Source of the DNA: a virus
Taxonomy: Duplodnaviria > Caudoviricetes
DNA: 64,000 nucleotides
IMG/VR virus record: IMGVR_UViG_3300021185_002017
Strand: one strand, 5' to 3'
The notes below the pieces were generated by a model. It made no database searches and was not told where the DNA came from. It saw only the letters and a list, made by a program, of their open reading frames with translations. Within the stretch, counting starts at the first letter, position 1. The number at the start of each line of letters is the position of its first letter. The position numbers and the translations under genes are program-made. Shown here piece by piece: positions 1 to 55,295 of the stretch.

Positions 1-1887
1 AGTAATACCATTTCCGCCTACAACATTCAATGTAACTGCACCACTAGTGCCGCCACCTGTTAAACCATTACCTGCTGTTACTGCTTCAATGTCACCTGCA
101 TCGTTAGTGAAACTAATTACACCAGTTGTACTGTTGTATGAAATGTCACCACTTGCACTAATTAAAGCTCTAACTTCGCCATCTGTTCTTTCAGTAAAAC
201 TCATTACACCAGTTGAACTGTTGTATGCTAAGTCACCACTTCCACTAATTGCTGCTCTTGCATCACCGTCTGCGTATTGAGTAATAGTTGTTGCAATAGC
301 ACCGTCTGTTACAGTAATACCTGTACTAGCACTAAAGTGAGCTCTTACTTCTGAAGCACTTGGACCTGTGTAAGTAATAACACCTGTTCCTGAGTTGTAT
401 GCTAAACTTCCGTCTCCACCAGCATCTGTTACACTGATATGAGCTCTTGCTTCACTTGCACTTGGACCTGTGTAAGTAATTACACCAGTTGTGCCGTTAT
501 ATGCTAAACTTCCGTCTCCGCCTGCGTCTGATACTGAAACAGCACCTCTTGCTCTTGCATTTGTGAAGTATAAGTTACTTGAACCTTCAACTAAGTCGTC
601 AGTTTCAGTAGCAATCTTAAAGTTTGTAGAACCATCATTTGTAAACTGCCATTGGCCTTCACTTTCGTCCCATATAAGACTTACATCTGCACTTGAACCT
701 CTGTTTACAGTTAAACCTGCATCTTCACTTGGAGCACCACTTGCGTCTCTGTTTAATTCAATAACGCTATCTGCTAATGCAGTAATTTGTGAATTAACAA
801 TAGTTTGTGTACCACTAATTGTAACGTTACCGTTAAACACTGCATCGTCACTGTATGTCTTAGCACCTGCTACTGTTTGAGCACCACTTGTTCTTACTAC
901 TGTTGTATCAACATCTACTGTTCCTGCACTGTAATCAATACCATCGCCGCCTACTAAGTGAGCGTCAATTCTTGCTTCAGTTTCTGCTGCACTAACACCT
1001 GTAAATGTAAGTACACCTGTGCTGTTGTTATATGCTAATGAACCATCACCACCTGCGTCAGTTACACTAAGGTGAGCTCTTACTTCAGTAGCACTTGGCC
1101 CTGTAAATGTAAGTACACCAGTTGAACTGTTATATGCTAATGAACCATCACCACCTGAGTCTGTTACGCTGACAGCTGCTCTAGCTCTTGCATCTGTATA
1201 ATACTGATTTGAACTACCTTCTGCTACTGCGTCACTATCAACTGCATCAACGTATGCTTTAGTAGCTGCGTCTTGTGCTTCAACTGGATCATCAACATTA
1301 TTAATGTTGCTACTGTTCATGTTAATGTTTGAACCAAACTTAACACCGCCTGTTGAACTGATTGTTTTAGCTGCTGTAAGTACAACATCTGACTTGAGCT
1401 GGATTGAACCACCTGATGTCATTTCCAAGTCACCGGAGCCAGTAGTTAAAATACTAATGTTCTGGTTATTGTCTGCACTAAATTGAATTGTTCCTGAATT
1501 ATCTTCAAGTACTTTTTGTCCGTTAACGTAAAGTGATCCTGGACCAACATATACATCTTTCCATACTTTGGAAGCACTACCTAATGAGTATGTATTGCTG
1601 ACACTAGGTATCAAATTACCTTCTAAGTCTTCGTAGTCTATTGCAAGTGTTGCTGCACCATCTGCTGCTCCACCTGTTAAACCTGAGCCTGCTACAACCG
1701 ATGTAATATCACCTGTTGCCGCAGCTACTACCTCATCGTACTTTGCTAATCGTGTGCCACCAGCAGTAGACCCGTCGTGGACACGAATTGTATCCAAATC
1801 GGTATCGACCGTGATTTCACCTACTAAGCCTGTAAATGAGCTGTGTTGTGCGGTCGTACCGCGTCTAAACTGAATAGCTGTTGCCAT
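1..1887 (-). CDS. Tail fibre protein with Mtd_N-type N-terminal domain (3' end runs off the window)
   Basis: Manual translation from ATG at 1887: MATAIQFRRGTTAQHSSFTGLVGEITVDTDLDTIRVHDGSTAGGTRLAK, the typical major-tropism-determinant N-terminal motif. It is followed by Gly/Ser/Thr-rich GGDGSLxYNSSTGVxTYTGPSASEVRAH repeats. AGGGG RBS upstream. Absent from the ORF track, presumably because its stop is outside the window. Confidence 0.85.
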   Translation of the reverse strand, partial: MATAIQFRRGTTAQHSSFTGLVGEITVDTDLDTIRVHDGSTAGGTRLAKYDEVVAAATGDITSVVAGSGLTGGAADGAATLAIDYEDLEGNLIPSVSNTYSLGSASKVWKDVYVGPGSLYVNGQKVLEDNSGTIQFSADNNQNISILTTGSGDLEMTSGGSIQLKSDVVLTAAKTISSTGGVKFGSNINMNSSNINNVDDPVEAQDAATKAYVDAVDSDAVAEGSSNQYYTDARARAAVSVTDSGGDGSLAYNSSTGVLTFTGPSATEVRAHLSVTDAGGDGSLAYNNSTGVLTFTGVSAAETEARIDAHLVGGDGIDYSAGTVDVDTTVVRTSGAQTVAGAKTYSDDAVFNGNVTISGTQTIVNSQITALADSVIELNRDASGAPSEDAGLTVNRGSSADVSLIWDESEGQWQFTNDGSTNFKIATETDDLVEGSSNLYFTNARARGAVSVSDAGGDGSLAYNGTTGVITYTGPSASEARAHISVTDAGGDGSLAYNSGTGVITYTGPSASEVRAHFSASTGITVTDGAIATTITQYADGDARAAISGSGDLAYNSSTGVMSFTERTDGEVRALISASGDISYNSTTGVISFTNDAGDIEAVTAGNGLTGGGTSGAVTLNVVGGNGIT

Positions 1888-1934
1888 TTTATATTCCCCT
1901 AAATCTTTGTTAGAAAATGATTTTTATTTAACAC

Positions 1935-1942
1935 TATTTATC
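1935..1942 (-). promoter_or_regulatory. gp55-type late promoter (GATAAATA)
   Basis: GATAAATA about 48 bp upstream of the ATG at 1887; resembles T4 late TATAAATA and recurs upstream of many structural genes here. Confidence 0.65.
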
Positions 1943-1946
1943 ATTA

Positions 1947-3341
1947 TTACTTAATTAGCCACCTTTCTAAGTCATCTGAGATATCAGCCAACTTGATCCA
2001 TGACTCGCCTGTTACTTGTCCCTTACACACAATTGCACATCCGTGTGTTATCACTGGTGCCCACTCGTTGCGTACTGTCCTACTTTTATATTCCTGTTGT
2101 CTTTCGAATTCTGGCGTTTCGTGTCCTGTGTACATATCTTCGCCGTTTGTGTGAGTTTCATACACTACTGTATTTTCTGGTTGCAGAAAATTTCTAGGTA
2201 GTGTAGAGTTGAAATGACTCTCAATAGTATGGTCTCTGTTTTCCCATTCCATTATGTGTACTCCAAGCTCTTTTTTATTCCCACGCTCATCAGCGTAATA
2301 TTTGTCTTGCCAGTAATTCCAGCCTGCTCCGCCGATCACTGCTGGGTTTTTAGAAACCACCCCAACAATGTCGTCACCTTCACCTGCAGTTACTAATTTG
2401 CCTTTAGGGCTAAGTGCAACTACAAATCCGGTTCTATCTTCTCTGCGAGGATTACCGTCTCCCCACTCAAACATTTCTGCATAACCTGAATTGTTACTGT
2501 GTACTGCACCGTCGCTAAATACTGCTCCTGTGCCGTCTACTGTAAATACTTTTTGTGCATAAGGATCGCCGTTTTCCATACTTTGATTCTTTGCTTCAAT
2601 AAAATTGTATGATTTATTATTGGTTGCCTGCGTTTCGATATCTATCATGTTACCATGAAAGAATCTACTAGGTGCATAACCGTGGAATACATTTCTGTTA
2701 TTATTAGGCTGATACACATTCAATCTACTTTGTGTATCGTCGTGCATAAGTCCTAATGACAAATCGCCTGCTCCAGTTAAATTTATTCCCTGTCTATTTT
2801 TTCTACTAACGCCTCTAAATAAAAATGCATTGCTATCATCAGCATCACTTTCAATTAGCAAACCTCTTACAGTTCCTTTACCGTCAACTGGCAAAGATGC
2901 TTCACTGTTATAATTAGATCTAATATGAACACTACCTGGCCCAATTGCTTTTGGTGACTGTGTTCCTATTCCAAGTGCTCCGCCTTTGTTAAAGCTCTGC
3001 ATTACAAGTTCACCTTTAGTAACATTAAGGCCATCTTTAGTGCCACTGAATCTAAATGTTTCAGGCCCTGCAAGTACTAATTCCGTTTTGCTTAGTGTTG
3101 CTTCCACTTTGTCCTTTGTTTTTTCAATGTGATCAAGTCTTTTGTTTTCTGCAATTACTTGTTCTCTAATTTCTTTATATAACTCTTTCTTTAATTCTGC
3201 TTTAAATTCTGCTAACGCATCTGCTGTAGTAGGTTCCTTCTTTTTTCTTGCGGTTCCTATTGGCTGCGTTTCTTGTTTTTTCTCTACCTTTTCTACCTTT
3301 TTCTTTACTACTGGTTGTGTGTCTTTTTTAACTCTTGGCAT
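1947..3341 (-). CDS. Tail appendage/fibre-related protein with C-terminal Peptidase_G2-type intramolecular chaperone
   Basis: C-terminal GYAEMFEW...RTGFVVAL...VGVVSKNPAVIG...W..KYY.DE.G...RNEWAPV pattern; Lys/Glu-rich coiled-coil N-terminus. Confidence 0.7.
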   Translation of the reverse strand: MPRVKKDTQPVVKKKVEKVEKKQETQPIGTARKKKEPTTADALAEFKAELKKELYKEIREQVIAENKRLDHIEKTKDKVEATLSKTELVLAGPETFRFSGTKDGLNVTKGELVMQSFNKGGALGIGTQSPKAIGPGSVHIRSNYNSEASLPVDGKGTVRGLLIESDADDSNAFLFRGVSRKNRQGINLTGAGDLSLGLMHDDTQSRLNVYQPNNNRNVFHGYAPSRFFHGNMIDIETQATNNKSYNFIEAKNQSMENGDPYAQKVFTVDGTGAVFSDGAVHSNNSGYAEMFEWGDGNPRREDRTGFVVALSPKGKLVTAGEGDDIVGVVSKNPAVIGGAGWNYWQDKYYADERGNKKELGVHIMEWENRDHTIESHFNSTLPRNFLQPENTVVYETHTNGEDMYTGHETPEFERQQEYKSRTVRNEWAPVITHGCAIVCKGQVTGESWIKLADISDDLERWLIK

Positions 3342-3365
3342 GTGTGTGTCCTATTGCTATTATGT

Positions 3366-4340
3366 TTAACTTACTATTGCTCTGTCTGTGATTCTTCTCC
3401 AGTTACTGCCATCGCTAAATGCCATAACTGCTCCACCAGTCTCATCGCTTACATAAATCATTTGACCTGCTACCGATGCGTCTGGTAAATTTGCTACTAC
3501 ATAAGAATCACTTGTTGGACCAAATGTATCCTTGATGTACTCAAAGTCGCCAACTGTTGCTGACTCCTCTACTGTACCAAAACTGATTATCATATTTGCT
3601 GTATCTGCTACAGAGCCGTAATCTGAAATAGGTTCAAATAATACGCCTTGTACGACACCAGTTTTTAATGTACTTGAACTTTTATCGTATGTTAATGCAT
3701 CGTTGCCTCCGAAAGAACCACTGTCGTTAAACTGTATATCAGTGTTTCCACCTTCTGGGTTTGCACTAACTGTTGTGAACGAAAGTGCTCCACTTCCATC
3801 TGTAACAACTACTTGACCTGCTGAGCCATCTGCTGTTGGAAGTGAGTATGCATTATTGATTGTGGTTGCACTACCTTGTACCTTAAAGACTTCGTTAGTG
3901 TTGTCTGCGTCATATACTTTAAATATAGGATCACTACTACTGCTGTTATCTCTTATGCGTACTTGAGTTGCTGTACCGTTTGAATGTCTTAAATCTAGTG
4001 CTGAACCAGAGAACTGAAGGCTTGGATTTGTTCCTAATCTTAAATTACCGTTAACAAATAATCTTTCATTAGATGCTGTTGAACCTATGCTAACTGTATC
4101 GTTTGTGCTGTCAACAAATAAAGTACCGTCATCAACATTTAATTCAGTTAAAGTTTCACCTATATTCTTCCAACTTGTTTCGTAGATATCTAACGTTGCG
4201 TTAGCAGAGTCAAAGAATAAGTCACCGTTTGATATATCAGCAGACGGTCTTGTACCTGTTGATATTTTGCTACCACTGTCTTTCTTTCCGATCTTGAATT
4301 CAGATGTAGTGGTACCTTTGAAATTTCCAAAAATTGCCAT
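3366..4340 (-). CDS. Short fibre / virion structural protein
   Basis: Beta-rich S/T/G composition, LPTADGSAGQVVVTDGSGALSF fibre motif, C-terminal LPDAS.AGQMIYVSDETGGAVMAFSDGSNWRR motif. Confidence 0.65.
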   Translation of the reverse strand: MAIFGNFKGTTTSEFKIGKKDSGSKISTGTRPSADISNGDLFFDSANATLDIYETSWKNIGETLTELNVDDGTLFVDSTNDTVSIGSTASNERLFVNGNLRLGTNPSLQFSGSALDLRHSNGTATQVRIRDNSSSSDPIFKVYDADNTNEVFKVQGSATTINNAYSLPTADGSAGQVVVTDGSGALSFTTVSANPEGGNTDIQFNDSGSFGGNDALTYDKSSSTLKTGVVQGVLFEPISDYGSVADTANMIISFGTVEESATVGDFEYIKDTFGPTSDSYVVANLPDASVAGQMIYVSDETGGAVMAFSDGSNWRRITDRAIVS

Positions 4341-4413
4341 TTATTTCCCCGGTTAGTTCAGAGTGTGTAAATACACACTGTCAGTGCAATTGCACTGTCT
4401 AGTCCGTTGTATG

Positions 4414-4421
4414 TATTTATC
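4414..4421 (-). promoter_or_regulatory. gp55-type late promoter (GATAAATA)
   Basis: GATAAATA in the intergenic region upstream of the 3366..4340 gene. Confidence 0.65.
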
Positions 4422-4443
4422 TTTTTGGAAAGTATCTTAGGGT

Positions 4444-7400
4444 TTATACTAATATTTCGATAACACCAGGTTGTGCATCAGTTTTTGTTTCTAATGCTCT
4501 ACCGATTATCTGTAAAGGACTTAGTGTTTGAGGATTAGCTGCAACCATTGCATGTCCTGGTAAGTTACTTGTAATTAACACATCACCTTTGTTTACATTA
4601 CCTGTAACTTTACAAGGTATTCTTCCACGCAATGCTACTGCAACTACATGTTCGCCTTCGCAATGTGAATTCATTAAATGTGCTGGGTTTGTACTTACAA
4701 CGCCAACTGCTTTGTAACTACCTGGGTCTTCTGTAGTACTTACTTCGTGTTCACCGCCAATTATTAATACAGTACCTGGATCATAATTTGCATCTGCTAC
4801 ATAATTCTCAGCCAAGTCAGCGTATCTTGCTGAAGTTGCTGTTGCTGTAATAACACCTGCACTAAAGTTACCCGAGCTATCTCTAGCAACTACTTTACTT
4901 CCTGTATTGGCCGATGTAGCATCAACTGAAACAGTATCTGCCGCTACAGTTATATATGAACCTGCGCCTACATTTAATGTTGCGCCTCCACTAGTAGCAC
5001 CACCTGTTAGACCTGAGCCTGCTGTTACGGCTGTAATATCACCAACTGTTGTTGAATAACCATAACTTAAAATTTTATCTTCAATGGCCGCTGAGGTCAT
5101 TAATGATGTATCGTTGTTTGCAAAACTTTCTGAGCTTAGTTGTAATGTACTTCCTGCAAAATGAGAAGTTGTTAATCCGCTAACTGCTAGTGAAACTGTA
5201 CCTGATGTACCGCCTCCACTTAAACCAGTGCCTGCTGTAACACCTGTTACATAACCAGTATCTGTTAAACTAATAGCACCTGTGCTATTGTCGTATGTAA
5301 TACCAGTTCCACCACTTAAAGCACTTCTGGCTCTTGCGTTTGTAAAGTATAAGTTACTTGAACCTTCTGATAAATCATCTGTATCAGCTGCCGCTATCCT
5401 GGCATCTGCTCTAGCATTTGTATAATAAAGGTTACTTGAACCTTCTGATAAATCATCTGTGTCGGCTGCTGTTATTCTAGCGTCTACTCTTGCATCTGTA
5501 TAATAAAGGTTACTGCCTTCTGAAATATGTGCTGTGGTACTTGGTATGCTAAACACACCTGTGCTTTCAGTATAACCTGCTGTACCGAGTGTTGCACTTA
5601 CTGCCTCTCTTGCTCTTTGATCTGTATAATACTGATTTGAACTACCTTCTGATAAATCGTCTGTATCTTTAGAACTTAAATCTAGTGAACCGCCTATAAC
5701 ACCGAGAACAGATGAATCAACGTATGCTTTAATACTTTGTTGTGTTGCTAAGTGTGTTGCACTAGCAGACACCATGTTGTCTTCGTCTTTAATAGCACTA
5801 CCACTTACTCCAGTGTCTAGAACAGCACTTGTAAGTGTTTTATTTGTAAATGTTTGCGTACCTGTTAATGTAGCAACTGTTGAATCAATAGAGATATCAT
5901 TTGCACTAGCAGTAATACCTGTGCCTCCAACAACATTTAATGTAACTGCACCTGCTGTGCCACCACCTGTTAAGCCGTCACCTGCACCAACTGCTGTAAT
6001 GTCAGCTGCATTTGTGTTAGCAATTGAAATTGTTGTACCTGAGTTACTAATTGCAATACCTGCACCTGCAGCAAATGTTACCAAGTCACCACTTTCGACA
6101 ACTACATTTCCTGTTGTAGGTGTTACAAATTTCCAAGCATTATAATTATCTGCTGTAGATGTAAATGCACCAGTACTGCTGTTATAACTTAGTTCAGTAC
6201 CACTTGCACTAAACTCTGATCTAATTTGACTTTGCGATACGCCTGAGTAACTAAACTGCCCTGTTGAACTATTGTAACTAAATGTTCCGTCACCTGCATT
6301 ATCTATAGCACTAAATGCTCCACGGATTGCACTAATGTCACCATCTATTGTGATTACATTTCCTGATTCCGTTGCATTAGTATATGTGCCACCGTCTATA
6401 CTTCTAATACCTGCGTATGTTGTTGCACCGTCAACTCTGTCACCTGCGTAAATGTTTGTACCTGTATTACCTACATCTTCTAATGCTCCAACATCAACTG
6501 CTGGAGTAATTTCTCTTGCTTGTCCGTCTACATAAATGTATGCTTTAGCAAGAGTACTATCATGATATATTGCACCCGATACTGTTGATGAACTGCTTGG
6601 TGTTACTAATTCTCCAGTAAATGATGTTCTATCGGAAATGTTTTGATCGCCCGATGTTCTTACAACTGTGTTATCGACTTCTATGTCATTTGCATTAGCA
6701 GTAATACCGTCACCGCCAACAACATTAAATGTTCTACTAGCGGTAATATCTCCGCCGCCGGTTAAACCAGCACCTGCTGTTAGTGTTACACCTGAGTGAG
6801 CAACATGTTCATCTGCTACAAATCCACTTAAATTGTCGTGTACTATATCTGAATCTGTTGTAGTAATCACTCCAGCATTAATTCCGATACCTGTTCCGCC
6901 ACTAAAGTGAGCTCTAACATTATCTGCTGAATTATCTATCCTTGCTTGTACTTCTGACAGGCTTGGTCCGTTGTATGTAAATACTCCATTGCTATAAGCA
7001 AATGATCCATCGCCACCGATGTCTGATGCACTAAACAAGTTTTTAATGTAAGTATCATCAGTTGAGAATGTTCTATCAGCAGTTAAGTTGCCGCCTCCGT
7101 TGAGACCTGTTCCTGCTGTTAATGTTCTGCCTTGTAGTGTTGATATGTTGGCAGTATTGTTTGTTACTACTGCACCAACATTGTCTGCATTACCTAATGC
7201 TGTTGCTAATTCGTTTAATGTATCAAGTGAGCCATCTGCTCCGTCTACTAAACTTGTAATTGCTGCTTCTACATATTCTGTAGTAGCCGCTATGTTGTTG
7301 CCACCTGTACCAGCAACATAACTTCCGCCACTGTTAGTAGGCTTAATACTTGTTTGACTAGGAAGTGTTACAGCACTACTAAATGTTTTTGCACCTGCAA

Positions 7401-8616
7401 TAGTTTGTGTGCCACTTGTTCTAACAACTGTGTTATCAACTTGTATATCATTTGCATTTGCAGTAATACCATCGCCACCGATAACATTAAATGTTCTACT
7501 AGTAGTAATGTCACCACCACCTGTTAAACCTGATCCTGCTGTTAGTGTAACTCCACTGTGAGCAATATGTTCGTCTGCAACAAAGCCGTCTAAACTATCG
7601 TGCTGTATTTGACTTTCGACTGCTTCGTAAACACCAGTACTGCTGTTGTAAGTAACACCGTTACCTGCACTAAAGTGAGCTCTTACTTCACTTGCACTTG
7701 GACCGGTGTATGTAAATGTACCAAGTCCGCTGTTATAAACTAATGAACCATCACCACCTGCATCTACTACACTAAAGTGGGCTCTTACTTCTACTGCACT
7801 TGGTCCTGTGTAAGTAAATACGCCATTGCTATATGATAGGCTTCCGTCGCCTCCTGTATCAGTTACACTTAAATAATTTTCTATATCCGATTCTACTGCA
7901 CTTTGGAAATCATTAACTTGTGAGTGCGGTATTGATATGTTTTGATTTGCTGCTGTTGTTATTTGTCCTTGAGCATTTACAGTAAATGTAGGTATTGCTG
8001 TAGCACTACCATAACTGTTTGCACTAACACCACTGTTAGTAATGCTTATTGCACCACTGCTTAAAGTAATTCCTGTGCTACCACTGAAATGAGCTCTAAC
8101 ATTATCTGCTGAATTATCTATTCTTGCTTGTACTTCTGCTAAACTAGGACCGGTGTATGTAATTACACCATTTGCATAACTTAAACTTCCGTCACCGCCT
8201 GTATCAGTTACACTAATTGCCGCTCTTGCTCTAGCATCAGTGTAGTATAAATTTGAACCTTCTGATAAATTTGTTGTACTATGATTACTAATACTACTAA
8301 CGGTACCTGTAACATCACCAGTTACATCACCCACGATGTCTGTTGTTAAGGAAGGACTTGCTCCAGTGAAAAGAATATCTTTGTCGATTGAGATTTTACC
8401 ACTGCTGTGATCGTACTGTATAGATGCTTCCGTTGTGTTACTTTTTAAAATAAGTTTTGATGCTACATCGTCGCCGTCAGCATTTACAACAAGTTCGTCT
8501 GATTCTAACCTGTTAACTAATTGTGTTGATTCTACTTGGGTAACATTACCTGTAACGGTAAGTTTACCTAGAACCAGTAACTCTTCATCTGCTGCTATAA
8601 CTGTGCGTTTTGACAT
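4444..8616 (-). CDS. Long tail fibre (1390 aa) with internal repeats and C-terminal G2-type chaperone domain
   Basis: Start moved from 8661 to MSKRTV at 8616 (AGGGA RBS; the late promoter at 8652-8659 overlaps the track's start). Repeats DTDDLSEGSSNLYYT and GGDGSLSY...GPS; C-terminal RYADLAENY...GTVLIIGG...VGVVSTNPAHLMN...VALRGRIPCKV...IIGRALE. Confidence 0.85.
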   Translation of the reverse strand: MSKRTVIAADEELLVLGKLTVTGNVTQVESTQLVNRLESDELVVNADGDDVASKLILKSNTTEASIQYDHSSGKISIDKDILFTGASPSLTTDIVGDVTGDVTGTVSSISNHSTTNLSEGSNLYYTDARARAAISVTDTGGDGSLSYANGVITYTGPSLAEVQARIDNSADNVRAHFSGSTGITLSSGAISITNSGVSANSYGSATAIPTFTVNAQGQITTAANQNISIPHSQVNDFQSAVESDIENYLSVTDTGGDGSLSYSNGVFTYTGPSAVEVRAHFSVVDAGGDGSLVYNSGLGTFTYTGPSASEVRAHFSAGNGVTYNSSTGVYEAVESQIQHDSLDGFVADEHIAHSGVTLTAGSGLTGGGDITTSRTFNVIGGDGITANANDIQVDNTVVRTSGTQTIAGAKTFSSAVTLPSQTSIKPTNSGGSYVAGTGGNNIAATTEYVEAAITSLVDGADGSLDTLNELATALGNADNVGAVVTNNTANISTLQGRTLTAGTGLNGGGNLTADRTFSTDDTYIKNLFSASDIGGDGSFAYSNGVFTYNGPSLSEVQARIDNSADNVRAHFSGGTGIGINAGVITTTDSDIVHDNLSGFVADEHVAHSGVTLTAGAGLTGGGDITASRTFNVVGGDGITANANDIEVDNTVVRTSGDQNISDRTSFTGELVTPSSSSTVSGAIYHDSTLAKAYIYVDGQAREITPAVDVGALEDVGNTGTNIYAGDRVDGATTYAGIRSIDGGTYTNATESGNVITIDGDISAIRGAFSAIDNAGDGTFSYNSSTGQFSYSGVSQSQIRSEFSASGTELSYNSSTGAFTSTADNYNAWKFVTPTTGNVVVESGDLVTFAAGAGIAISNSGTTISIANTNAADITAVGAGDGLTGGGTAGAVTLNVVGGTGITASANDISIDSTVATLTGTQTFTNKTLTSAVLDTGVSGSAIKDEDNMVSASATHLATQQSIKAYVDSSVLGVIGGSLDLSSKDTDDLSEGSSNQYYTDQRAREAVSATLGTAGYTESTGVFSIPSTTAHISEGSNLYYTDARVDARITAADTDDLSEGSSNLYYTNARADARIAAADTDDLSEGSSNLYFTNARARSALSGGTGITYDNSTGAISLTDTGYVTGVTAGTGLSGGGTSGTVSLAVSGLTTSHFAGSTLQLSSESFANNDTSLMTSAAIEDKILSYGYSTTVGDITAVTAGSGLTGGATSGGATLNVGAGSYITVAADTVSVDATSANTGSKVVARDSSGNFSAGVITATATSARYADLAENYVADANYDPGTVLIIGGEHEVSTTEDPGSYKAVGVVSTNPAHLMNSHCEGEHVVAVALRGRIPCKVTGNVNKGDVLITSNLPGHAMVAANPQTLSPLQIIGRALETKTDAQPGVIEILV

Positions 8617-8651
8617 TTTTAAATAATCCCTACTGTAAACAATATAATAAC

Positions 8652-8659
8652 TATTTATC
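8652..8659 (-). promoter_or_regulatory. gp55-type late promoter (GATAAATA)
   Basis: GATAAATA 35 bp upstream of the long-fibre start. Confidence 0.65.
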
Positions 8660-8695
8660 AAGAAAGATAAAATATGTTATTATGAACGCATAGCC

Positions 8696-8730
8696 AAAAA
8701 AATACCCCTCTGCTTTCGCTTTGGGGTATA
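8696..8730 (-). terminator. Rho-independent terminator after the porin gene
   Basis: Minus strand ATACCCC-aaaGC-GAAA-GCaga-GGGGTAT followed by a T run. Confidence 0.8.
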
Positions 8731-8748
8731 TTTCAAAGTATTTCTACT

Positions 8749-9396
8749 TTATAGTGTTTTCCACACTGAGAAGATAAAAGAATCCTCATCAGAGAGTAAA
8801 CTGCCATCATCAGCAGTAAAGTCAACATAAGAAACTTTACCTGTTAATCCACCAACTGGTAGATCAAAAGTTTTACTTATTTCTATGTTGTCTCCAACAC
8901 CATCACTCATGCCGTAAGCGATGTCTACAACTTCTAAACCAGAATATCCTATTCTAGTATAGTCATTATAGTTATCGTTGCCCATTACATGTGCAAAACT
9001 AAAGTCTTTCACATCAAGGCTTACAAACGTTTCAGATCCATTTAGACTTGAATCGCCTGCGTATGTATAATCAGCAAAGCCTACTTTAACAGACACAGAG
9101 TCACTAAGGTCTCTTCCGTATGCTAAGTATGAGTAAACTTCAGCATCAGCATCACTGCCTGCAAAGTCTACTTGGCCAACCCAAACACCTGCTTCAACTC
9201 CGTTTTCAAGATCTAAACCAATAGATCCAAAAGCAGAACTTCCGCCGTCAGTTTGAGAGATTCCACGAAACACATAGTCACTTCCGTAACCAACAGTTCC
9301 GTCCCATTTTGCCGCATTGGCATTGAACGCAATCATTGACAATAGTATAATTACTAATGCTTTGAATCCGTTCTCTATATTGAATAAAGTTTTCAT
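8749..9396 (-). CDS. TorF/TIGR02001 (Gcw_chp)-family putative outer-membrane beta-barrel porin
   Basis: Signal peptide ending ANA-A; hallmark SDYVFRGISQT motif; GVWVGQVDF; alternating beta-strand pattern; AGGAGG RBS. Confidence 0.85.
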   Translation of the reverse strand: MKTLFNIENGFKALVIILLSMIAFNANAAKWDGTVGYGSDYVFRGISQTDGGSSAFGSIGLDLENGVEAGVWVGQVDFAGSDADAEVYSYLAYGRDLSDSVSVKVGFADYTYAGDSSLNGSETFVSLDVKDFSFAHVMGNDNYNDYTRIGYSGLEVVDIAYGMSDGVGDNIEISKTFDLPVGGLTGKVSYVDFTADDGSLLSDEDSFIFSVWKTL

Positions 9397-9472
9397 TTAT
9401 TCCTCCTTTTTTCTACCGGGGCTTCTAAGTAGAGACAGAATTGTCCTACCTTTTGTCCACGGCATAGTTACT

Positions 9473-9501
9473 ATTATACAGAAAAACCTGCATGATGTCA
9501 A
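9473..9501 (-). promoter_or_regulatory. Host sigma70-type (early) promoter, perfect consensus
   Basis: TTGACA (9496-9501), 17 nt, TATAAT (9473-9478) on the minus strand, upstream of the porin gene. Confidence 0.85.
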
Positions 9502-9598
9502 GTGTTTGTAGGTATTATTTAATTCGGTTTTTTAGGGTAAAAAAGTGCCTGTTAAGTTCTCGCCGTGTTTAATCACAGCAATAACATAGATACTCAAA

Positions 9599-10309
9599 CT
9601 ATTGTAAAATAGACGAAATCCTGTCGTAAAGGTCTTTGTGTGCTTCTGCACCTGGGTGGCAACCATCTGGAAATAAGTTGCTAGATTGCATATTAGAAAT
9701 AACTGCTTCTGCTAGAGTAATATGTTTGGAAAGATTATCGGCTCTAACATCTAAATCTAGTAGAGAAGGCACAGCACTGCTAAGATGATCTGTGGCTTTC
9801 ATTGCTAATAATTCTGCTCTCCAATCTGGTACACAATAATGTACCTGTAGATATGAGTTCAACGCAAATGGATCTAACGGTGCTGCACCGCCAATTGCAA
9901 TTAGTTTAGCATTAGGAATTTTTTGTAGTATATTGTTTATACCATTGTATGTGAGATGTCTCAATTCACTTAATTGACTATAGAGTAATGTAGCATCAAC
10001 TTTATCTCTGTCTCTAAGTAAACTTGTACACATCCAAATAATATAATCTATGTTAGTGTCTTGTTGTAATGTTAATTCTGTGTACTCTTCTGATGCTAGT
10101 TGTAAGTCGCATACAGTGTTTCCATCTAAAAGACTTTCAGCACGATCAATTGCTTGTAAGTTACTACTGCCATTTACAGAAACATTGTATACATTGTGCC
10201 CTGCATTTGCTAACAATCTCGATAAATGATGATTACCATTTGCTGTACCTTCTGCTACCATAGGCCAATCTGGTACACCGTAACTATCACCTAACATTAA
10301 TATATTCAT
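9599..10309 (-). CDS. SGNH/GDSL-family hydrolase (esterase)
   Basis: Block I GDSY near the N-terminus (MNILMLGDSYG), block II NGSSN, block V PDGCHP (DxxH). Confidence 0.75.
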   Translation of the reverse strand: MNILMLGDSYGVPDWPMVAEGTANGNHHLSRLLANAGHNVYNVSVNGSSNLQAIDRAESLLDGNTVCDLQLASEEYTELTLQQDTNIDYIIWMCTSLLRDRDKVDATLLYSQLSELRHLTYNGINNILQKIPNAKLIAIGGAAPLDPFALNSYLQVHYCVPDWRAELLAMKATDHLSSAVPSLLDLDVRADNLSKHITLAEAVISNMQSSNLFPDGCHPGAEAHKDLYDRISSILQ

Positions 10310-10314
10310 AACTG

Positions 10315-10322
10315 TATTTATT
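10315..10322 (-). promoter_or_regulatory. Late promoter variant (AATAAATA)
   Basis: Lies between the gp23 terminator and the SGNH start codon. Confidence 0.5.
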
Positions 10323-10328
10323 TAAGTC

Positions 10329-10357
10329 AAAAAAAAGCACACTAAAAAGTGTGCTTT
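10329..10357 (-). terminator. Rho-independent terminator after the major capsid gene
   Basis: AAAGCACAC-6nt-GTGTGCTTT stem followed by a T run on the minus strand. Confidence 0.85.
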
Positions 10358-10384
10358 CTCTTATTCTTATAAGTCTGTTAAGGC

Positions 10385-11524
10385 TTACTGGAATGCTACG
10401 TTTGACAATGAAATTGCATCAACGTAGTCTGCTGCGTTACCCAAAGATGAAGCAGTGTTTGTTAGTTCTTTATAACCATAACGTGTCATAAAGCTAACTA
10501 CTGGTTCAAATGTGCTTGGATCCATAACTGGACCTGTGCTCATTAATGGGATATATGGGCAGTAGAATGCTGGAGCATCTGATTCGCTTGAACCTTTGTA
10601 ACCAACAAGTACTTTAGTACCGTCAGCTGCGTAGTTGTCTACGAATACTTTGATTGTTCCGTTTAATGTTCCAACAAACTTAGTGTTTGTAGGAGCGTCA
10701 AAAGAACCTTCAGTTGTTCTTGCGAACGTTGAAGTTGATGCACTTTGCAAGATTGTTAACGCTTCTGGAGATACTACAATGTAGTTACCTGCACCACGTC
10801 TTGTTCTTGCTGCGATTCTGTTAGCTGCTCTATTGATTTCAATAGCCAATGCTGCGTGTCTGTCACCAACGTATACTGATTGTCCACTTAAAGAACTAAA
10901 GTCTAAAGTAGTACCAGCACCTGCTAATGAACGTAATGAACCGATAATTTCTTGGTCGATTTCAACTACGATTTCTTGTGCTAAAGCCTGCATAATTTCA
11001 GCTTCAACATCAACACCGTGCATTGATTCTGCATCTTGAGCTGCCTCAAAAGTCCAACGAGCTGATAAACGTCTAGTTTTAGCTTCTACTGTTTCTTTTA
11101 AGATCTGAATGCTCATTTTCTTACCTGGGTTTCCTTCAGCTGCTGCTGTAGCATCTGGAGAACCTGCGTAAGTTGAAGCAAGTTTGAAAGGACTTAAAGC
11201 CTCATCACCTGCTGTTGCCCCACCTGCAGTTTCCGCATAACGGACTCTTAGTGTGTGGATTTGGCCAACTGGACCAGTCATTGGTTGAACACCGACTAGC
11301 TCGTTAGCTATTACTGAAGGCATAACCCTTCTGATTAAAGGTAACATTACCTTGTTTAAAGTTGCGACTGAACCTGCACCTGTAGCACCTGTAGTTGCGG
11401 CCTCTGACAAATAGCGTTTTGTATTTTCGAGGACCACATCCAATGAAGATTTTCTGTTTCCAGAAACACCTTCGAGCAATGCTTCTTTGGTTGCGGACCA
11501 GTTGCTTTCAAATAAATTTGCCAT
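10385..11524 (-). CDS. gp23: Major capsid protein, T4 gp23-like
   Basis: LIRRVMPSVIANELVGVQPMTGPVGQIHTLR, VEAKTRRLSARWTFEAAQD, FYCPYIPL, FMTRYG motifs. Confidence 0.95.
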   Translation of the reverse strand: MANLFESNWSATKEALLEGVSGNRKSSLDVVLENTKRYLSEAATTGATGAGSVATLNKVMLPLIRRVMPSVIANELVGVQPMTGPVGQIHTLRVRYAETAGGATAGDEALSPFKLASTYAGSPDATAAAEGNPGKKMSIQILKETVEAKTRRLSARWTFEAAQDAESMHGVDVEAEIMQALAQEIVVEIDQEIIGSLRSLAGAGTTLDFSSLSGQSVYVGDRHAALAIEINRAANRIAARTRRGAGNYIVVSPEALTILQSASTSTFARTTEGSFDAPTNTKFVGTLNGTIKVFVDNYAADGTKVLVGYKGSSESDAPAFYCPYIPLMSTGPVMDPSTFEPVVSFMTRYGYKELTNTASSLGNAADYVDAISLSNVAFQ

Positions 11525-11539
11525 TATTAATTACTCCTG

Positions 11540-12649
11540 TTATTTTGAAAGTCCGGCTAGTTTTTTAATGTAATCTAATTCAACTACATTATCTGTTTCG
11601 TCATCAGAAGCTGCTTTCACAGTTTCTTTGTTACCAGTGTGTTCTTTAATCACTGATTCAGACAATGTCTTCTTAACTCTAGGTGTTTCGCCATCTAAAA
11701 CGCTAGGTAAGTACTTGTTAAAAGCACTTTCTAGTTTTTCAGTGGTAACACTTTCAAGTAGATCTGACATAATTTCTTTCTTCTCTTTGCCAAGTGGCGC
11801 CATTAGTTCGTTAAGTGTCTCTTTACGAGTATAACGATCTTCTGCTATTTTTAACTTGCTTTCAGTAAGTTTAGATGCTTCTTGCGATGCTTCTATAGTT
11901 GCTGTTGCTTCGTTAATCTTAGTTTCCATCTCAGCGAGTGTTCTCTGTAATGTCTTAATTTCTTTGCTTTCGTTTAAGTACGATGTGTTGTACTCGTTAG
12001 CGAAAGATTCAAAAATTCGACGTCCAAAGTCATTTTCACGAGCTTTAGTGATGTCATTACGGAAAGATTTAACTTCTTCAGTGATAACTGTGTTGATTTT
12101 ATTCTCAACCAAGTCAGCTGCTTTAGAAATGAAAGCCTTCTTAGCATTCGCTAATTGTGCTTTACCTTCTCTTACCATTTTAACTTTTTGCTCTACTAAT
12201 GATTTCTTATCTTCGTGGAACTCAGCAATTTCAGTTGCTAAAGATTCTGTAATAAACTCATCAAGTTTAGTAACATGTTCTGCTACTCTTGATTTGTCTG
12301 CTCTTAGTTCTTTAACTTCTTTTGCTAAGTTTTCAGTTACGAAAGAATTTAATAGTTTAGCGTGTTCACTAATGGCTTTGTGATATTTGACTCTGTCTTC
12401 CGCCAATGCACCTTTTTCTTCTGCAATTTCTGCCACTTCTGCTGTAACCTTATCAGTGATAAAGTTATCAACTGCTTCAACGATCTTGCTCTTATCGTGC
12501 TCGTATCGTTGTGCAAACTCCTCACGAAGTTCTGCAGTAAGTGATTCTCTTGCTTCAAGTACTTTGGCTTCCCATGCTTCTTGTAGAGATTCTTTAACTT
12601 CAGAAGTTAAATCTGTCCCTTCAATTAGGTCTTTAAATGTCACTGCCAT
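11540..12649 (-). CDS. gp22: Prohead scaffolding protein, gp22-like
   Basis: Long coiled coil, E/K-rich, located between gp21 and gp23. Confidence 0.85.
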   Translation of the reverse strand: MAVTFKDLIEGTDLTSEVKESLQEAWEAKVLEARESLTAELREEFAQRYEHDKSKIVEAVDNFITDKVTAEVAEIAEEKGALAEDRVKYHKAISEHAKLLNSFVTENLAKEVKELRADKSRVAEHVTKLDEFITESLATEIAEFHEDKKSLVEQKVKMVREGKAQLANAKKAFISKAADLVENKINTVITEEVKSFRNDITKARENDFGRRIFESFANEYNTSYLNESKEIKTLQRTLAEMETKINEATATIEASQEASKLTESKLKIAEDRYTRKETLNELMAPLGKEKKEIMSDLLESVTTEKLESAFNKYLPSVLDGETPRVKKTLSESVIKEHTGNKETVKAASDDETDNVVELDYIKKLAGLSK

Positions 12650-12668
12650 AGTAGTCTCCTACTTCCTG

Positions 12669-13295
12669 TTATATTTTTAATTCTTTGATAAGTTTGTGAA
12701 TCTCACCTACCAAATGTTTTTCTGCACTCATGTCGTGTGTAACTTGTCCGGCTAATTCGTGCAACATTGCACCGCCTTTCATGTTAAATAGACTCTCATA
12801 GATAGTCTTAGGATAAGCATCCGGTGCACTAGGCTGGGCCACAATGTCGACTGTTATAATATCAAAGTCAGATACTTTACCTGACTCATTTACATTACCA
12901 CTGCCTCTACTGCTCACGCCTAGCTTCGCACCTGCTTTTAACAATGCTTTCGCTATGTTACCCATCGGTGTATCTATGATTTTTAATTTGCCTAGTCCAT
13001 TAGCGTCATCACAATGCATTTCTGTAATGATATGACTTACTCTATCTAAGTTAATTTGTAACTCTTCTGGGTGATCTAACTCGCCCATTACAGTTTCACC
13101 TTCACCTAAACGGTTACGAACACTCTCTACAGCACGTTGGATCTCATCTTTAGGATATACTCTTCCATTTTGATTTTTTACATCGCCTTGAATGAATAAT
13201 CCTTGCATGAAAAGGTCTTTACCGTCTTGTGACTCCATAATCTGCACATTAGCAGCACTTGGACTCAAATATTCGTATAGCTTTCTGGATTGCAT
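12669..13295 (-). CDS. gp21: Prohead protease, gp21-like
   Basis: NQNGRVYP, GELDHP, LGVSSRGSG, DIVAQPSAPDA motifs. Confidence 0.95.
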   Translation of the reverse strand: MQSRKLYEYLSPSAANVQIMESQDGKDLFMQGLFIQGDVKNQNGRVYPKDEIQRAVESVRNRLGEGETVMGELDHPEELQINLDRVSHIITEMHCDDANGLGKLKIIDTPMGNIAKALLKAGAKLGVSSRGSGNVNESGKVSDFDIITVDIVAQPSAPDAYPKTIYESLFNMKGGAMLHELAGQVTHDMSAEKHLVGEIHKLIKELKI

Positions 13296-13313
13296 CTTAA
13301 TTTATTCTCCTAC

Positions 13314-14075
13314 TTACGCCTTTTTAGGCTCAACTTTAATGTTGTCTGTAGGTGTGTGATCTTTTGCACTTTCGCCTTTAACACCTTCGCTACCGTCTTT
13401 TGCTTTTACTGGTGAACCAGCGCCTGCTACTTTAGTTGCTTTTGGTGCTTTAGTTAAAGGTGACTCGGATGAATCTGCTTCGCCTGCTTTAGGTGCTGCA
13501 ACATTATCAGATAACTTAGTTGCTTCTTCAACAACTTCGTCTTCTTCTTCAATTGCTTCTTCTTCAGATTCTTCAACTGCTTCTTCGTCATCTTCAGTTG
13601 CTTCATCTAAATCATACTCAACACTTTCAAGATCAAGTTCTGCTTCTTCTTCGTCGCCTAACTCAGCTTCTGGCTCATCACCAGCTGCCATTAATGCGTC
13701 AAATTCTGCTTTTAATGATTCTAATTCGTCTGCGATATCTTCGACTTTGTCTTCTAGGTCTTCTTCACCTTCTGACTCATCTTCACCTTCTTCGTCTGAC
13801 TCTTCGTCACCGAAAGGCATTTCTTCGCTTTCTTCGTCGTCGTCTTCGCCGATTTCATCTGCTTGGACTTCGTCTTCGTCTGAAGTAATATCATCTTCAA
13901 AGTCATTACTTTGATCGATAACTTCAGTCACTTCTTCTTCCTCTACCTCTTCATCAAGAAGGCTTTCATATTGCTCACGGGCTTTGTCTACGACATACTC
14001 GTGTAACAACTCTTCGGCTTTCTCATTTTCTTCAGCAAGGAGAAGTTCTAATATTGATTCTAACTTCTTAGACAT
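13314..14075 (-). CDS. Hyperacidic prohead core protein (gp67-like position)
   Basis: Extremely D/E-rich with a K/A/P-rich C-terminal tail; AAGGAGG RBS; syntenic between gp68-like and gp21. Confidence 0.7.
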   Translation of the reverse strand: MSKKLESILELLLAEENEKAEELLHEYVVDKAREQYESLLDEEVEEEEVTEVIDQSNDFEDDITSDEDEVQADEIGEDDDEESEEMPFGDEESDEEGEDESEGEEDLEDKVEDIADELESLKAEFDALMAAGDEPEAELGDEEEAELDLESVEYDLDEATEDDEEAVEESEEEAIEEEDEVVEEATKLSDNVAAPKAGEADSSESPLTKAPKATKVAGAGSPVKAKDGSEGVKGESAKDHTPTDNIKVEPKKA

Positions 14076-16183: not shown

Positions 16184-16191
16184 TATTTATC
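16184..16191 (-). promoter_or_regulatory. gp55-type late promoter (GATAAATA)
   Basis: GATAAATA 30 bp upstream of the portal ATG, with TTTAA 7 nt further upstream. Confidence 0.7.
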
Positions 16192-33419: not shown

Positions 33420-33674
33420 TTAACTGGCTTTTTGAACCATCTTTTCCATCACAATAAATTCATCTGGTTTGATGTTTTTATCGTAACGGTAATTACCTGC
33501 AAAGTTTACCGAGTCAAACAGTGCATACTGTTTTGTCACTGAGTCATATAGTCCAACAGTCACGAACCGCTTAGATTGCTGAAAGATGCGATGGAATCTA
33601 TGACGACCCTGCTTCTCATTAATCTTTACTGCTTGTGACCATAGTTGGTCAAACTCACGATTCAATTTAAACAT
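33420..33674 (-). CDS. Hypothetical early protein (84 aa)
   Basis: ORF with its own sigma70 promoter and terminator, antisense to the baseplate operon. Confidence 0.7.
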   Translation of the reverse strand: MFKLNREFDQLWSQAVKINEKQGRHRFHRIFQQSKRFVTVGLYDSVTKQYALFDSVNFAGNYRYDKNIKPDEFIVMEKMVQKAS

Positions 33675-33754: not shown

Positions 33755-33782
33755 ATTATAGCACCTTATACACACTTGTCAA
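33755..33782 (-). promoter_or_regulatory. Host sigma70-type promoter with extended -10
   Basis: TTGACA (33777-33782), 16 nt, TATAAT (33755-33760) preceded by TGc. Confidence 0.8.
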
Positions 33783-33797
33783 CCTTTTCTTCTATTA

Positions 33798-33828
33798 TTA
33801 AAACTCTAGTTAAAGAATCAGATAAATA
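33798..33828 (+). promoter_or_regulatory. Late promoter with upstream dyad element
   Basis: TTAAAACTCTAGTTAA-N7-GATAAATA, just before the gp25 ATG. Confidence 0.75.
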
Positions 33829-38416: not shown

Positions 38417-41400
38417 ATGTCAGATAAAATTGTAAAACAGTTACCGGTAGTACTGCAAACTAAAGCCGTAAGAAATTTCTTCGAGGCTACAGTTGAACAA
38501 TTATACAGTGAGGCTAATACAGTTCCACTGGCAGGATTCATTGGTAAGAAAACAGGCGATGACGCTAAACTTCAGGGTGCATTCATCAAAGAAGATAATG
38601 CAGACAGACGCCAATACAATTTAACTCCTGCTGTTAACAATATTAATCCAGTTACTGGTGACAGTGAAAACTTAATCTTTTACGATGAATTCATTGACAC
38701 ATTAAAAGTCTATGGAGTAAACACTAGCAACCACAACAAATTATTTGGTAGTCGTTATAGATCATTTGTTCCGCCAATAGACATAGATAAGTTTGTAAAC
38801 TACCAAGAATACTACTGGCATCCTGCAGGACTTGATGCTTTAGAAATTGGTGCTGATAATCAGGCTCCTTTAAACTTAGAAAAAGATGTTTTAGGTAAAA
38901 AAGAATTTACATACGATGGCACTACATTCCGTAATGGAATGACTGTTATATTTGCAGACTCTGGATTTACTATTCCTGCAAATGCAACAACACTGCCTAT
39001 AAAAGCCGGCATTGCATATATTGTACAAGGTGTAGGTACTGGCATTAAATTAGTTGAAAAGAGTATAACAAGTAGCACAGAGTATGGCGGTGCAAACCTT
39101 GCAGAACCAGATTATATTATACAGCAACGAGGTGCCGCAAATAAAAATGCATGGAGCAGAGTTAACCACTGGTACCACAGAGACAACTTTTTAGAAGCAG
39201 GTGATGAGTTACCTGACAGAGCTCATCGTGCTAAAAGACCAATTATAGAATTTGATGCAGACTTAGAATTATTTGATCACGGTACTACAAGTTACGGCGA
39301 ACCAACAGTAAATGTTACAGGTATTGTTAGAGCTGACATTGAGAACCAACCAACTAAGCACATTGATACTAGAGAATTACGAGACGGTGATGTACTTTTA
39401 TTCTTAAACGAGGACGAAGATGCTAAAAGATTCTTGTACACTGTTAGTGGTGTAAACACAGGTATAGTTTTAATACCTACAAGTAGTACACCTATTGCAG
39501 TTGGACAAACTGTAACAATAGCAGAAGGTAATGTGTTTAAAGGCATTGATTATATTTTCAATGGAACAGATTATGTACAAGCTCAAAGAAAAATAAAAAC
39601 AAACCAAGCACCGTTATTTAATTTATATGACGATGCAGGAAATGCATTAAACCACAATGGACTTTACAATAACAGCGACTTTGCTGGTAATAAGATTTTT
39701 GGGTATAAAGAAGGCGTAGGTGTAAAAGACACAGAGCTAGGTTTTCCTTTAACTTATACACCTTACAAATCCGTTAGTGAAATAACATTTGAAAACTATA
39801 TTCACACTGATAGATCTCAGTATACTCCGTTTGGTACTCATACTGCTAAAACAGTTTTAGGCACTTACTATTACAAGTTATTAAAAGATGTACCAGAGTA
39901 TCATTCTTCTTTTAAAGAAAGTAAAATTAGAAACGAGCAGTGTGTTATTACAACACATTATATAACTCAGTTTGATGTAGACGACAACAAGTTAATATAT
40001 AACATTGGAGCAACACCTGATATCTTAGTATCTAGATCAAGTGGATATGATATCTTAGTTAAAGTTAACGGCTCTATTGTAACAGACTATACTTATGTTG
40101 CACCAACTGATATTAAATTTAATACATTTACTTTTAAGCCAGGTGATGTAATTGATGTTGAGGTAGGAACCGCAACGGGCATATCTAAAATTACAGACAG
40201 TAGATATGATTTACCTCTAAGTTGGAGATCAAATCCATACAACAAAGAAATTGAATTAGTTGCTGAACCTGACTATATGTCTCACTTTAAGAGATACATT
40301 GAAAGACAGGATGGCTTTACTGGTAGTGCATTAGGTTCTAACAACTTTGCAAGTACAGCAAAAGAGATTGTACATGCTAAAGACATTGTACAAACAGATC
40401 AAGATTTAATGGTTGCGGCATTTGCATTAGATGACCAGCCACATAACTTAGTTGATGCTCTAAGATTTACAGCAAGAGAATACGAAAAGTTTAGAGCAAG
40501 ACTAATAAAAGAAATTAATCAGTATTACGAAAGATTTGATACTGCTAACTTATCAAAAGAATATATATTAGAACAAGCACTAAGAAGTCTAATTTCTTTC
40601 AGCATAGGCAAAGATATATTTGGAACATCCTATGTATTGCCTTTTGGTGATAACTACCTCAAACAAGAATTTGATGTAGCAGATATTAATTCAACAGTTT
40701 ATGTGCTTGACGACTATGCAGACTTAGATGAAATTACTAACAGTCTATTAGTTTATCATGTTACAGCAGCAACAAATACACAAGACTTGTTAACTGTTGA
40801 ATCAGATTACACTATTTCAAGTGTTAACCCTATAACAATAACTGTTACAAAACAATTAGAATTAGGTGATTCTATTGTAACTAAACTGTACGATAAAGAT
40901 AGAGACAGTGCAGAATGTCCTGCTACTCCTAGTACATTAGGCTTATACACTTTATGTAGACCTCGAGTAGAAACAGATAACAGTTTTAAAACTCCACAGC
41001 AATTATTGATTGGACACGATTGCAGTAAAACACTTCTCCAAGGCGATATCAGAGATGAGATATTATTAGAGTTTGAAATAAGATTATATAATTCAGCAGC
41101 TCAACAATTTAGATCAACAGATAGTTTCCCTAGATTAAATGTTGGAGATGTGCGTTCGGGTGCATTTAGATCAACTAATCAATCTCCAAGAGAATATGCT
41201 GACTTATTGAGAAACAGTTTTACAAACTGGACTAAATCATCTAATGTTGATTATTCAACAAATGAATTTTATGATGCTAACGATACACTTACATGGAACT
41301 ACCGAGGCGAGCAAGACTTGCCAGGACACTGGAGAGGCTGGTTTGAATACTATTACGACACAGTAAGACCTCATACACATCCATGGGAAATGCTAGGCTT

Positions 41401-55267: not shown

Positions 55268-55295
55268 AATGTAGTTTAATGAAAAGTGATAAATA
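55264..55295 (+). promoter_or_regulatory. Late promoter with upstream dyad element
   Basis: TTAAAATGTAGTTTAA-N8-GATAAATA just upstream of the ATG at 55302. Confidence 0.75.

Follow-up and report, generated by a model that had tools for sequence, protein, structure and literature searches.

An uncultured marine jumbo phage carries a self-contained cassette for a TorF-family porin that has moved between genomic sites and exchanged its barrel-coding part. The cassette consists of a single gene, enclosed by its own promoter and its own terminator, which we located in the window (the whole stretch of viral DNA analyzed, 64,000 nucleotides). Related jumbo phages carry it at other positions, and the closest cellular relatives found are porins of SAR86 bacteria. 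Nitrogen uptake through an ammonium-type channel uncoupled from host nitrogen control is the role best supported by the evidence below, and we give it a probability of roughly 45%. An initial annotation of the DNA had proposed an autonomous, early-expressed porin gene; the mobility of the cassette, its mosaic structure and its SAR86 relatives are new findings.

Cassette anatomy and genomic position

The features of the cassette are collected in Table 1. The TTGACA-17-TATAAT promoter, the AGGAGG ribosome site, the gene and the terminator were each found on the minus strand where the initial annotation had placed them. The promoter is the sole 12/12 match within positions 4000-14000, and in the 64-kb window as a whole 3 perfect sigma-70 promoters were observed versus 0.06 expected. 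In the terminator, the stem occupies 8729-8702 and the T-run continues to 8696, with a fold z of -3.8; a simple terminator scanner overlooked this element on account of its loop, which exceeds 8 nt.

Table 1. Coordinates of the cassette, of RNA contigs covering it and of late-type motifs in the window
Feature	Position	Strand	Remarks
Sigma-70 consensus promoter	9473-9501	-	TTGACA 9501-9496, 17-nt spacer, TATAAT 9478-9473
5′ leader, 70 nt	9397-9466	-	start site inferred at ~9466; A-rich spacer between hairpin part and SD
SD (ribosome site) AGGAGG	9402-9407	-	5 nt 5′ of ATG 9396
Ribosome-site and signal-peptide-coding block	9325-9409	-	-13 to +72 relative to ATG
TorF-family gene, 215 aa	8749-9396	-	predicted signal peptide residues 1-28 (ANA↓A), then predicted 12-strand beta-barrel
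Intrinsic terminator	8696-8729	-	7-bp GC-rich outer stem and inner GC/GAAA/GC, then T-run
Separate metatranscriptome contig, runs X15 and X17	8723-9456	.	widest extent among four runs
Metatranscriptome contig, run X16	8783-9445		
Metatranscriptome contig, run X18	8813-9446		
GATAAATA late-type motif, downstream fibre gene	8652-8659	-	outside cassette; neighbour's own promoter class
GATAAATA, other sites	1935-1942, 4414-4421, 16184-16191, 20083-20090	-	
GATAAATA, other sites	20155-20162, 33821-33828, 55288-55295	+	

On its upstream side the cassette is bordered by a prohead protease gene, a gp23-type capsid gene (10385-11524) and a 236-aa ORF, and on its downstream side by a ~1400-aa fibre ORF, which has 1405 aa when read from a TTG codon and ~1390 aa when read from the ATG at 8616. 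These assignments confirm the proposed insertion between the capsid module and the fibre genes. As in a moron, one gene is surrounded by its own promoter and its own terminator. The base composition of the segment does not set it apart, with a GC content of 0.371 in 8001-10000 versus 0.387-0.399 in neighbouring intervals.

The carrier is an uncultured marine jumbo phage of ~327 kb, a jumbo myovirus of the lytic type, whose capsid protein is 68.5% identical to that of Pseudomonas phage PA5oct and ~62% identical to those of Rak2-like jumbo phages. TorF proteins 72-96% identical to that of the window occur in many independent assemblies, with the order capsid, 236-aa ORF, TorF and fibre kept. More than 10 independent assemblies, drawn from several projects, have the junctions seen in the window, and one of them is a circular contig of 326,582 bp. 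TorF copies 56-58% identical to that of the window occupy the capsid/fibre site without the 236-aa gene, and the frame is intact in every copy whose locus holds a complete frame.

The encoded protein and its predicted fold

The initial annotation had assigned the gene product to the TorF family of outer-membrane barrels, and profile searches uphold this with scores above both curated thresholds: 76.4 bits for TIGR02001 (cut-off 47.15; E 2.4e-21) and 33.8 bits for PF09694, Gcw_chp (cut-off 24). The TIGR02001 alignment is restricted to profile positions 27-180 of 244 and is thus a partial match to the model. The window protein is a short form (215 aa; mature 187 aa), like its SAR86 relatives (197-230 aa), and the family motif SDYxFRGxSQT is present in it as SDYVFRGISQT. 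At the N-terminus, a hydrophobic helix covers residues 7-24 in the structural model and an ANA↓A motif is found.

The structural model (AlphaFold2, 30 relatives) has a pLDDT of 74.5 and places 12 strands after the N-terminal helix, so that a transmembrane beta-barrel is predicted, which would insert into the outer membrane. Foldseek matches were outer-membrane porins only. The best solved structures were the 12-strand porins VhGalP, KdgM and NanC, followed by OmpG and the OprD family. The predicted barrel resembles KdgM, NanC and VhGalP (PDB 4fqe, 2wjq, 8xua) in strand number and size, with Foldseek E values of 1e-5 to 1e-3 and TM scores of at most 0.67 by target; it differs from them in having just 10-14% sequence identity, no sequence relation at the level of families and unrelated substrates. 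The window protein terminates in ...VWKTL, and this Leu departs from the aromatic terminal residue of a BAM beta-signal; among the aligned relatives, 26 of 29 end in Phe.

Conservation is unevenly distributed along the protein. The predicted signal peptide is its most conserved part, and loop L1, which bears SDYxFRGxSQT, is conserved as well. Outer loops are predicted to be short, at 3-15 aa, and vary less than the strands (entropy 1.03 versus 1.30). Comparison of the window with the relative L005 gave a non-synonymous to synonymous ratio of ~0.33, indicating purifying selection overall.

A structured 5′ leader

The hairpin described in the initial annotation, GTAGGACA/ATTC/TGTC-T-CTAC at 9449-9429 (-), is exact, and it forms the apical part of a larger fold. 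This fold (9380-9466) has a dG of -22.4 kcal/mol and a z of -3.3; a closing stem that begins at +3 encloses the apical hairpin, and a small hairpin surrounds the AUG. Seven divergent leader variants fold into the same architecture, a 5′-end closing stem with an apical hairpin (z -2.1 to -4.2). Between the leaders of the window and L010, both partners have changed in 3 of the 8 apical pairs, with pairing kept. Conservation of the structure is read here from single-sequence folds.

RNAalifold applied to a MAFFT alignment of 8 leaders recovered the hairpin only partly and gave no compensatory pairs; the divergent variants were misaligned. No Rfam family reached its gathering score in the window, with only chance-level hits (E>1) within 8600-9700, and a tRNA search found none.

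The 5′ UTR of Escherichia coli ompA contains a 5′-terminal stem-loop that stabilizes the mRNA. Like it, the cassette leader has a stem that starts 1-3 nt from the predicted 5′ end, with a single-stranded ribosome site after it, and belongs to the mRNA of a predicted outer-membrane protein; mRNAs of the ompA type are highly expressed. Unlike an ompA homolog, the cassette leader has no sequence similarity to the ompA 5′ UTR and no Rfam match. By analogy, the 5′-terminal stem probably stabilizes the cassette mRNA.

Promoter class and transcription

The T4 late motif TATAAATA was considered as the late motif of this phage and rejected, since 0 occurrences were observed versus ~7 expected. The variant GATAAATA is used instead: it precedes at least 7 structural or late genes, among them the downstream fibre gene, at a distance of 10-60 nt (Table 1), and looks like the late-promoter motif of the window phage. 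When the cassette was searched for GATAAATA and TATAAATA, neither was present. Judged by these motifs, the promoter class of the cassette is different from that of the neighbouring late genes. With a sigma-70 promoter and without GATAAATA, the cassette is thus built for the host sigma-70 polymerase, and early timing of its expression, as initially proposed, can reasonably be inferred.

The region is represented in four marine metatranscriptome runs, each of which contains a separate contig of 634-734 nt over the cassette with 0-1 mismatch. The X15 and X17 contigs share both ends, one situated 10 nt inward of the predicted start site and the other within the first terminator arm; these matching ends are a weak hint of a single monocistronic RNA. 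Neither the 236-aa gene nor the fibre gene is joined to the cassette by any RNA contig. Cover is thin at 9457-9598 and 8662-8722, and gaps in it were not counted as evidence. RNA-contig cover varies greatly over the 20 kb examined, a pattern that speaks against simple carry-over of DNA.

Movement between sites and exchange of barrels

In related jumbo phages the cassette is found at no fewer than three sites. The first is the capsid/fibre junction (window, L011). The second lies between ferritin/nucleotidyl-transferase genes and HSP20/ClpS/SufB genes (L010 and, from IMG/VR, L017-L019), and the third is ~3 kb upstream of genes for a 2OG oxygenase and a family-B DNA polymerase (L009, L014). Comparison of L011, at the capsid site, with L017, at the ferritin/ClpS site, defined the limits of the unit: the two are 85% identical exactly from -103 to +701, and their flanks are unrelated. 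Position -103 is the first base of the -35 hexamer and +701 lies just past the terminator. Therefore, the promoter-to-terminator unit is what moves, and the autonomy that the initial annotation had read from a single copy is borne out by the limits of homology between sites.

Comparisons at the polymerase-proximal site show that its content varies. L009 and L100 share flanks there, and their cassettes cannot be aligned. In L127 (GCA_028110345.1, a 327,645-bp contig; slot at 3333-3661), both flanks are kept (71% and 46% amino-acid identity) and a 66-aa ORF preceded by a perfect TTGACA-16-TATAAT replaces TorF. This slot thus appears to accept different sigma-70-driven cassettes. Presence or absence of the gene between the same neighbours, a further hallmark of morons, is accordingly observed at the polymerase-proximal site (L009 and L100 versus L127); an empty version of the capsid/fibre site was not found. 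The ferritin and polymerase sites belong to one kind of genome; both loci are carried by G001, an IMG/VR record of 109,775 bp (~30% complete) with the cassette at the ferritin site and the polymerase 78 kb away. No second TorF match was found within the 109,775 bp of this record. Relatives of the polymerase occur on contigs of 313-353 kb.

Among copies with the signal peptide MK(T/N)LFNI(E/D)N, both promoter hexamers are perfect in 39 of 39, at -103 to -106, and the spacers diverge. From -13 to +72 the window and L009 are 97.7% identical over 86 nt, versus 43% nucleotide and 34% amino-acid identity in the mature part; synonymous difference is 0.18 in the 5′ block versus 0.89 in the mature part. 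Barrels and promoter-leader types are also found in different combinations. Barrel type B2 lies behind four promoter-leader types, at two known sites and on one unplaced contig, and type B3 lies behind four promoter-leader types at two sites. The simplest reading of these sequence patterns is that recombination inside the ribosome-site and signal-peptide block exchanges barrel alleles. Constraint at the nucleotide level, for example from the small AUG hairpin, may contribute to conservation of the 5′ block. A variant start was seen in L010 (10001-10024), where the homologous start codon is TTG and a 24-nt insertion supplies an upstream ATG and adds 8 residues to the signal peptide.

Cellular relatives and a candidate host

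A profile search of 1.84 billion representative proteins returned a continuum of forms of ~200-216 aa, and all of these with readable context sit among phage-like genes. In cellular genomes, matches at E<=1e-20 were obtained in 196 of the 251 genomes of the SAR86 order, the best at 4e-40; the order was identified as the SAR86 cluster from the names on identical or >=90%-identical proteins. The best matches in other Gammaproteobacteria were at ~1e-26, and 0 of 401 Alphaproteobacteria reached 1e-22 with the profile. In a maximum-likelihood tree, SAR86, viral and metagenomic proteins group apart from other Gammaproteobacteria (support 98/92) and the viral proteins form one clade (99/96). The position of the viral clade as sister to an amtB-linked SAR86 subgroup is weakly supported (88/44). 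SAR86 porins are therefore the closest cellular relatives found.

Like gammaproteobacterial TorF proteins, especially the short SAR86 forms with which it groups, the phage protein passes both family thresholds, contains SDYxFRGxSQT, has a predicted signal peptide and is ~200 aa long. Several features distinguish it from cellular TorF. It is encoded by a virus and falls in a separate viral clade, and its gene has a consensus sigma-70 promoter rather than a nitrogen-regulated operon, with no glnK or amtB partner. Its predicted signal peptide is phage-specific, with a 12-residue n-region, and the window copy has the terminal Leu noted above. In the cellular set itself, many SAR86 torF matches have one in-frame TAA or TAG near the N-terminus (G467:C24:23041-23658, G603:C4:76287-76898; L177, L182).

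The initial annotation had pointed to a proteobacterial host. Profile scores and the tree agree with this and narrow it to SAR86-like Gammaproteobacteria, so that, on the TorF gene alone, SAR86 would be the host. SufB, a second host marker present in the ferritin-site phages, does not discriminate: it is 63-68% identical to many Gammaproteobacteria and carries no SAR86 signal. Among SAR86 representatives, G048 had no SufB match, and the matches at E<=1e-150 include neither G404 nor G258. According to a 2017 paper, SAR86 viruses had not yet been isolated at that time (PMC5332604), and our literature search found no report of an isolated SAR86 phage.

Proposed role of the cassette

A link of the family to glnK-amtB had been named in the initial annotation, and it holds for the closest gammaproteobacterial relatives. 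Among the best relatives in a class-level sample, 6 of 8 adjoin co-oriented P-II and AmtB genes (Pfam), and glnK-amtB lies within 1.5 kb in 21 of the 30 best gammaproteobacterial relatives (tblastn). One SAR86 subgroup encodes torF-glnK-amtB. The link did not hold in a pattern-based scan of species genomes, which we set aside as a pattern-biased sample; its hits were for the most part Caulobacterales, matched partially and unlinked to amtB. The ammonium role of cellular torF genes is a suggestion from gene neighbourhood alone.

Since the closest cellular relatives are SAR86 porins, one subgroup of which has the arrangement torF-glnK-amtB, an ammonium-type channel is the most likely role, and we rank it ahead of surface remodelling or exclusion and of transport of another solute. 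Under this proposal, the cassette would be a phage moron, an auxiliary gene cassette whose consensus sigma-70 promoter would allow unmodified host RNA polymerase to make a monocistronic mRNA. The 5′ leader stem would probably stabilize this mRNA, the strong SD would drive its translation, and the predicted Sec signal peptide would export the 187-aa mature barrel to the host outer membrane. There it would be an added channel that passes ammonium or another small nitrogen solute of this kind, is produced outside host nitrogen control and feeds replication of the ~327-kb genome in nitrogen-poor seawater. The cassette would move among at least three sites, and recombination in the conserved 5′ block would swap barrel alleles. 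Both the substrate of the channel and its benefit to the phage are thus putative. We counted several observations against an ammonium role: the weak sister support (88/44), the equally high scores of SAR86 paralogues that are not linked to amtB, the Caulobacterales set, and the fact that neither glnK, amtB nor any other nitrogen gene lies beside the phage copy. The terminal Leu, the partial HMM cover (27-180 of 244) and the SufB result were also counted against it.

A different role would be surface remodelling. The barrel might replace, mask or dilute a host receptor protein, causing superinfection exclusion, or alter the envelope against other threats, with alleles swapped as competitors adapt. 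In its favour, types of barrel that share only 34-55% identity replace one another at the same sites and combine with various promoter-leader types, the cassette of the window adjoins fibre (host-recognition) genes, and phage outer-membrane proteins with roles in exclusion or at the surface are known, such as lambda Lom and the PA-2 Lc porin. Support for receptor displacement or exclusion is somewhat lowered by the short predicted outer loops, whose variability does not exceed that of the strands; purifying selection overall and the kinship with porins of nutrient operons also weigh against it, and we regard this role as possible but unlikely.

The channel could alternatively pass another small solute (methylamines/TMAO, urea, amino acids or a metal) or be a general diffusion pore and make the envelope more permeable during infection, with no specific link to ammonium. 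The name TorF hints at methylamines or TMAO, the family is functionally uncharacterized and has varied neighbourhoods (SDR, nitroreductase, TonB receptor, MFS), the amtB-unlinked SAR86 paralogues score as well as the linked ones, and the solved structures nearest to the model are 12-strand porins specific for sugars and acids. The dominance of the amtB/glnK link among the closest gammaproteobacterial relatives (21/30) argues the other way, and transport of some other solute seems rather improbable to us. That the cassette is an artefact or passenger, either host DNA misassembled into a phage contig, which the initial annotation had named as grounds for abandoning its proposal, or a decaying, unexpressed hitch-hiker, could be imagined for a host-like gene family in a structural module with no relative in PHROGs or GenBank phages, but is contradicted by junctions that recur in more than 10 independent assemblies including the circular contig, by a GC content of 0.37 versus 0.39 for the phage, by intact frames in copies with a complete frame, by absence of the exact 5′ block from 185,579 species genomes and by presence of the cassette sequence in RNA libraries, and is very unlikely indeed.

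The ammonium-type role can be joined with the mobility data in a broader and more speculative proposal. SAR86-infecting marine jumbo phages may share a portable porin cassette in which a fixed module (promoter, 5′-stem leader, SD and phage-specific signal peptide) is combined with an 86-nt recombination handle; the handle would exchange divergent TorF barrels between phages and slots, and the cassette would override host nitrogen control of an ammonium-type channel. We put this forward tentatively, and doubt that all of its parts will hold together.

Relation to known systems

Phage morons that encode outer-membrane proteins include lambda lom and bor and the lc porin gene of phage PA-2. Like them, the TorF cassette lies within a late module as one gene with a promoter and a terminator of its own, and encodes a predicted envelope protein dispensable for virion structure. 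Unlike the lambdoid morons, it resides in a lytic-type jumbo myovirus rather than a temperate phage, encodes a different barrel family, lacks compositional contrast, and combines a conserved 5′ module with swappable barrels at several sites.

The nearest published analogue is oprP, an auxiliary metabolic gene for a nutrient porin in amoC-phages (bioRxiv 10.64898/2026.06.18.733297). In both cases, a large aquatic phage encodes a host-like outer-membrane porin with a proposed role in acquiring a limiting nutrient. In contrast to oprP, which is >60% identical to host copies, the TorF cassette represents an old, diversified viral clade with no more than distant similarity to host genes (profile E ~1e-40), and it belongs to another porin family. 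Thus, phage-encoded porins and morons are known, and the viral TorF-family clade is new with respect to PHROGs and to the 50,697 GenBank phages searched with tblastn, in neither of which a TorF relative was found. A literature search found no paper that mentions the TorF family identifiers.

The cassette offers a concrete test of nitrogen acquisition by very abundant marine jumbo phages, and it points to a candidate host for a widespread phage clade, namely SAR86, one of the major groups of uncultured bacterioplankton. For the uncharacterized TorF family, the torF-glnK-amtB linkage is the most concrete functional lead. The joining of exchangeable barrels to a fixed module for expression and export, by way of a conserved junction, also bears on how phages shuffle accessory genes, and such a unit could possibly be used as a compact expression and secretion cassette.

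Additional features of the window

The other two perfect sigma-70 promoters lie at 22259-22287(-), directed into a gene-free stretch, and at 33755-33782(-), upstream of a small ORF that starts near 33674. Directly 3′ of the capsid gene, at 10334-10357, is a 10-bp palindromic hairpin with T-runs; this is likely a terminator that ends the capsid transcript ahead of the 236-aa ORF. On the plus strand, 38417-55267 is a single ORF of 5,616 aa, preceded by one of 1,400 aa. Finally, several runs contain RNA contigs that connect positions far apart within the fibre region at 134-5464 (for example 258 to 5408, 163 to 1175), which hints at fibre segments that are repeated or that vary among strains occurring together.
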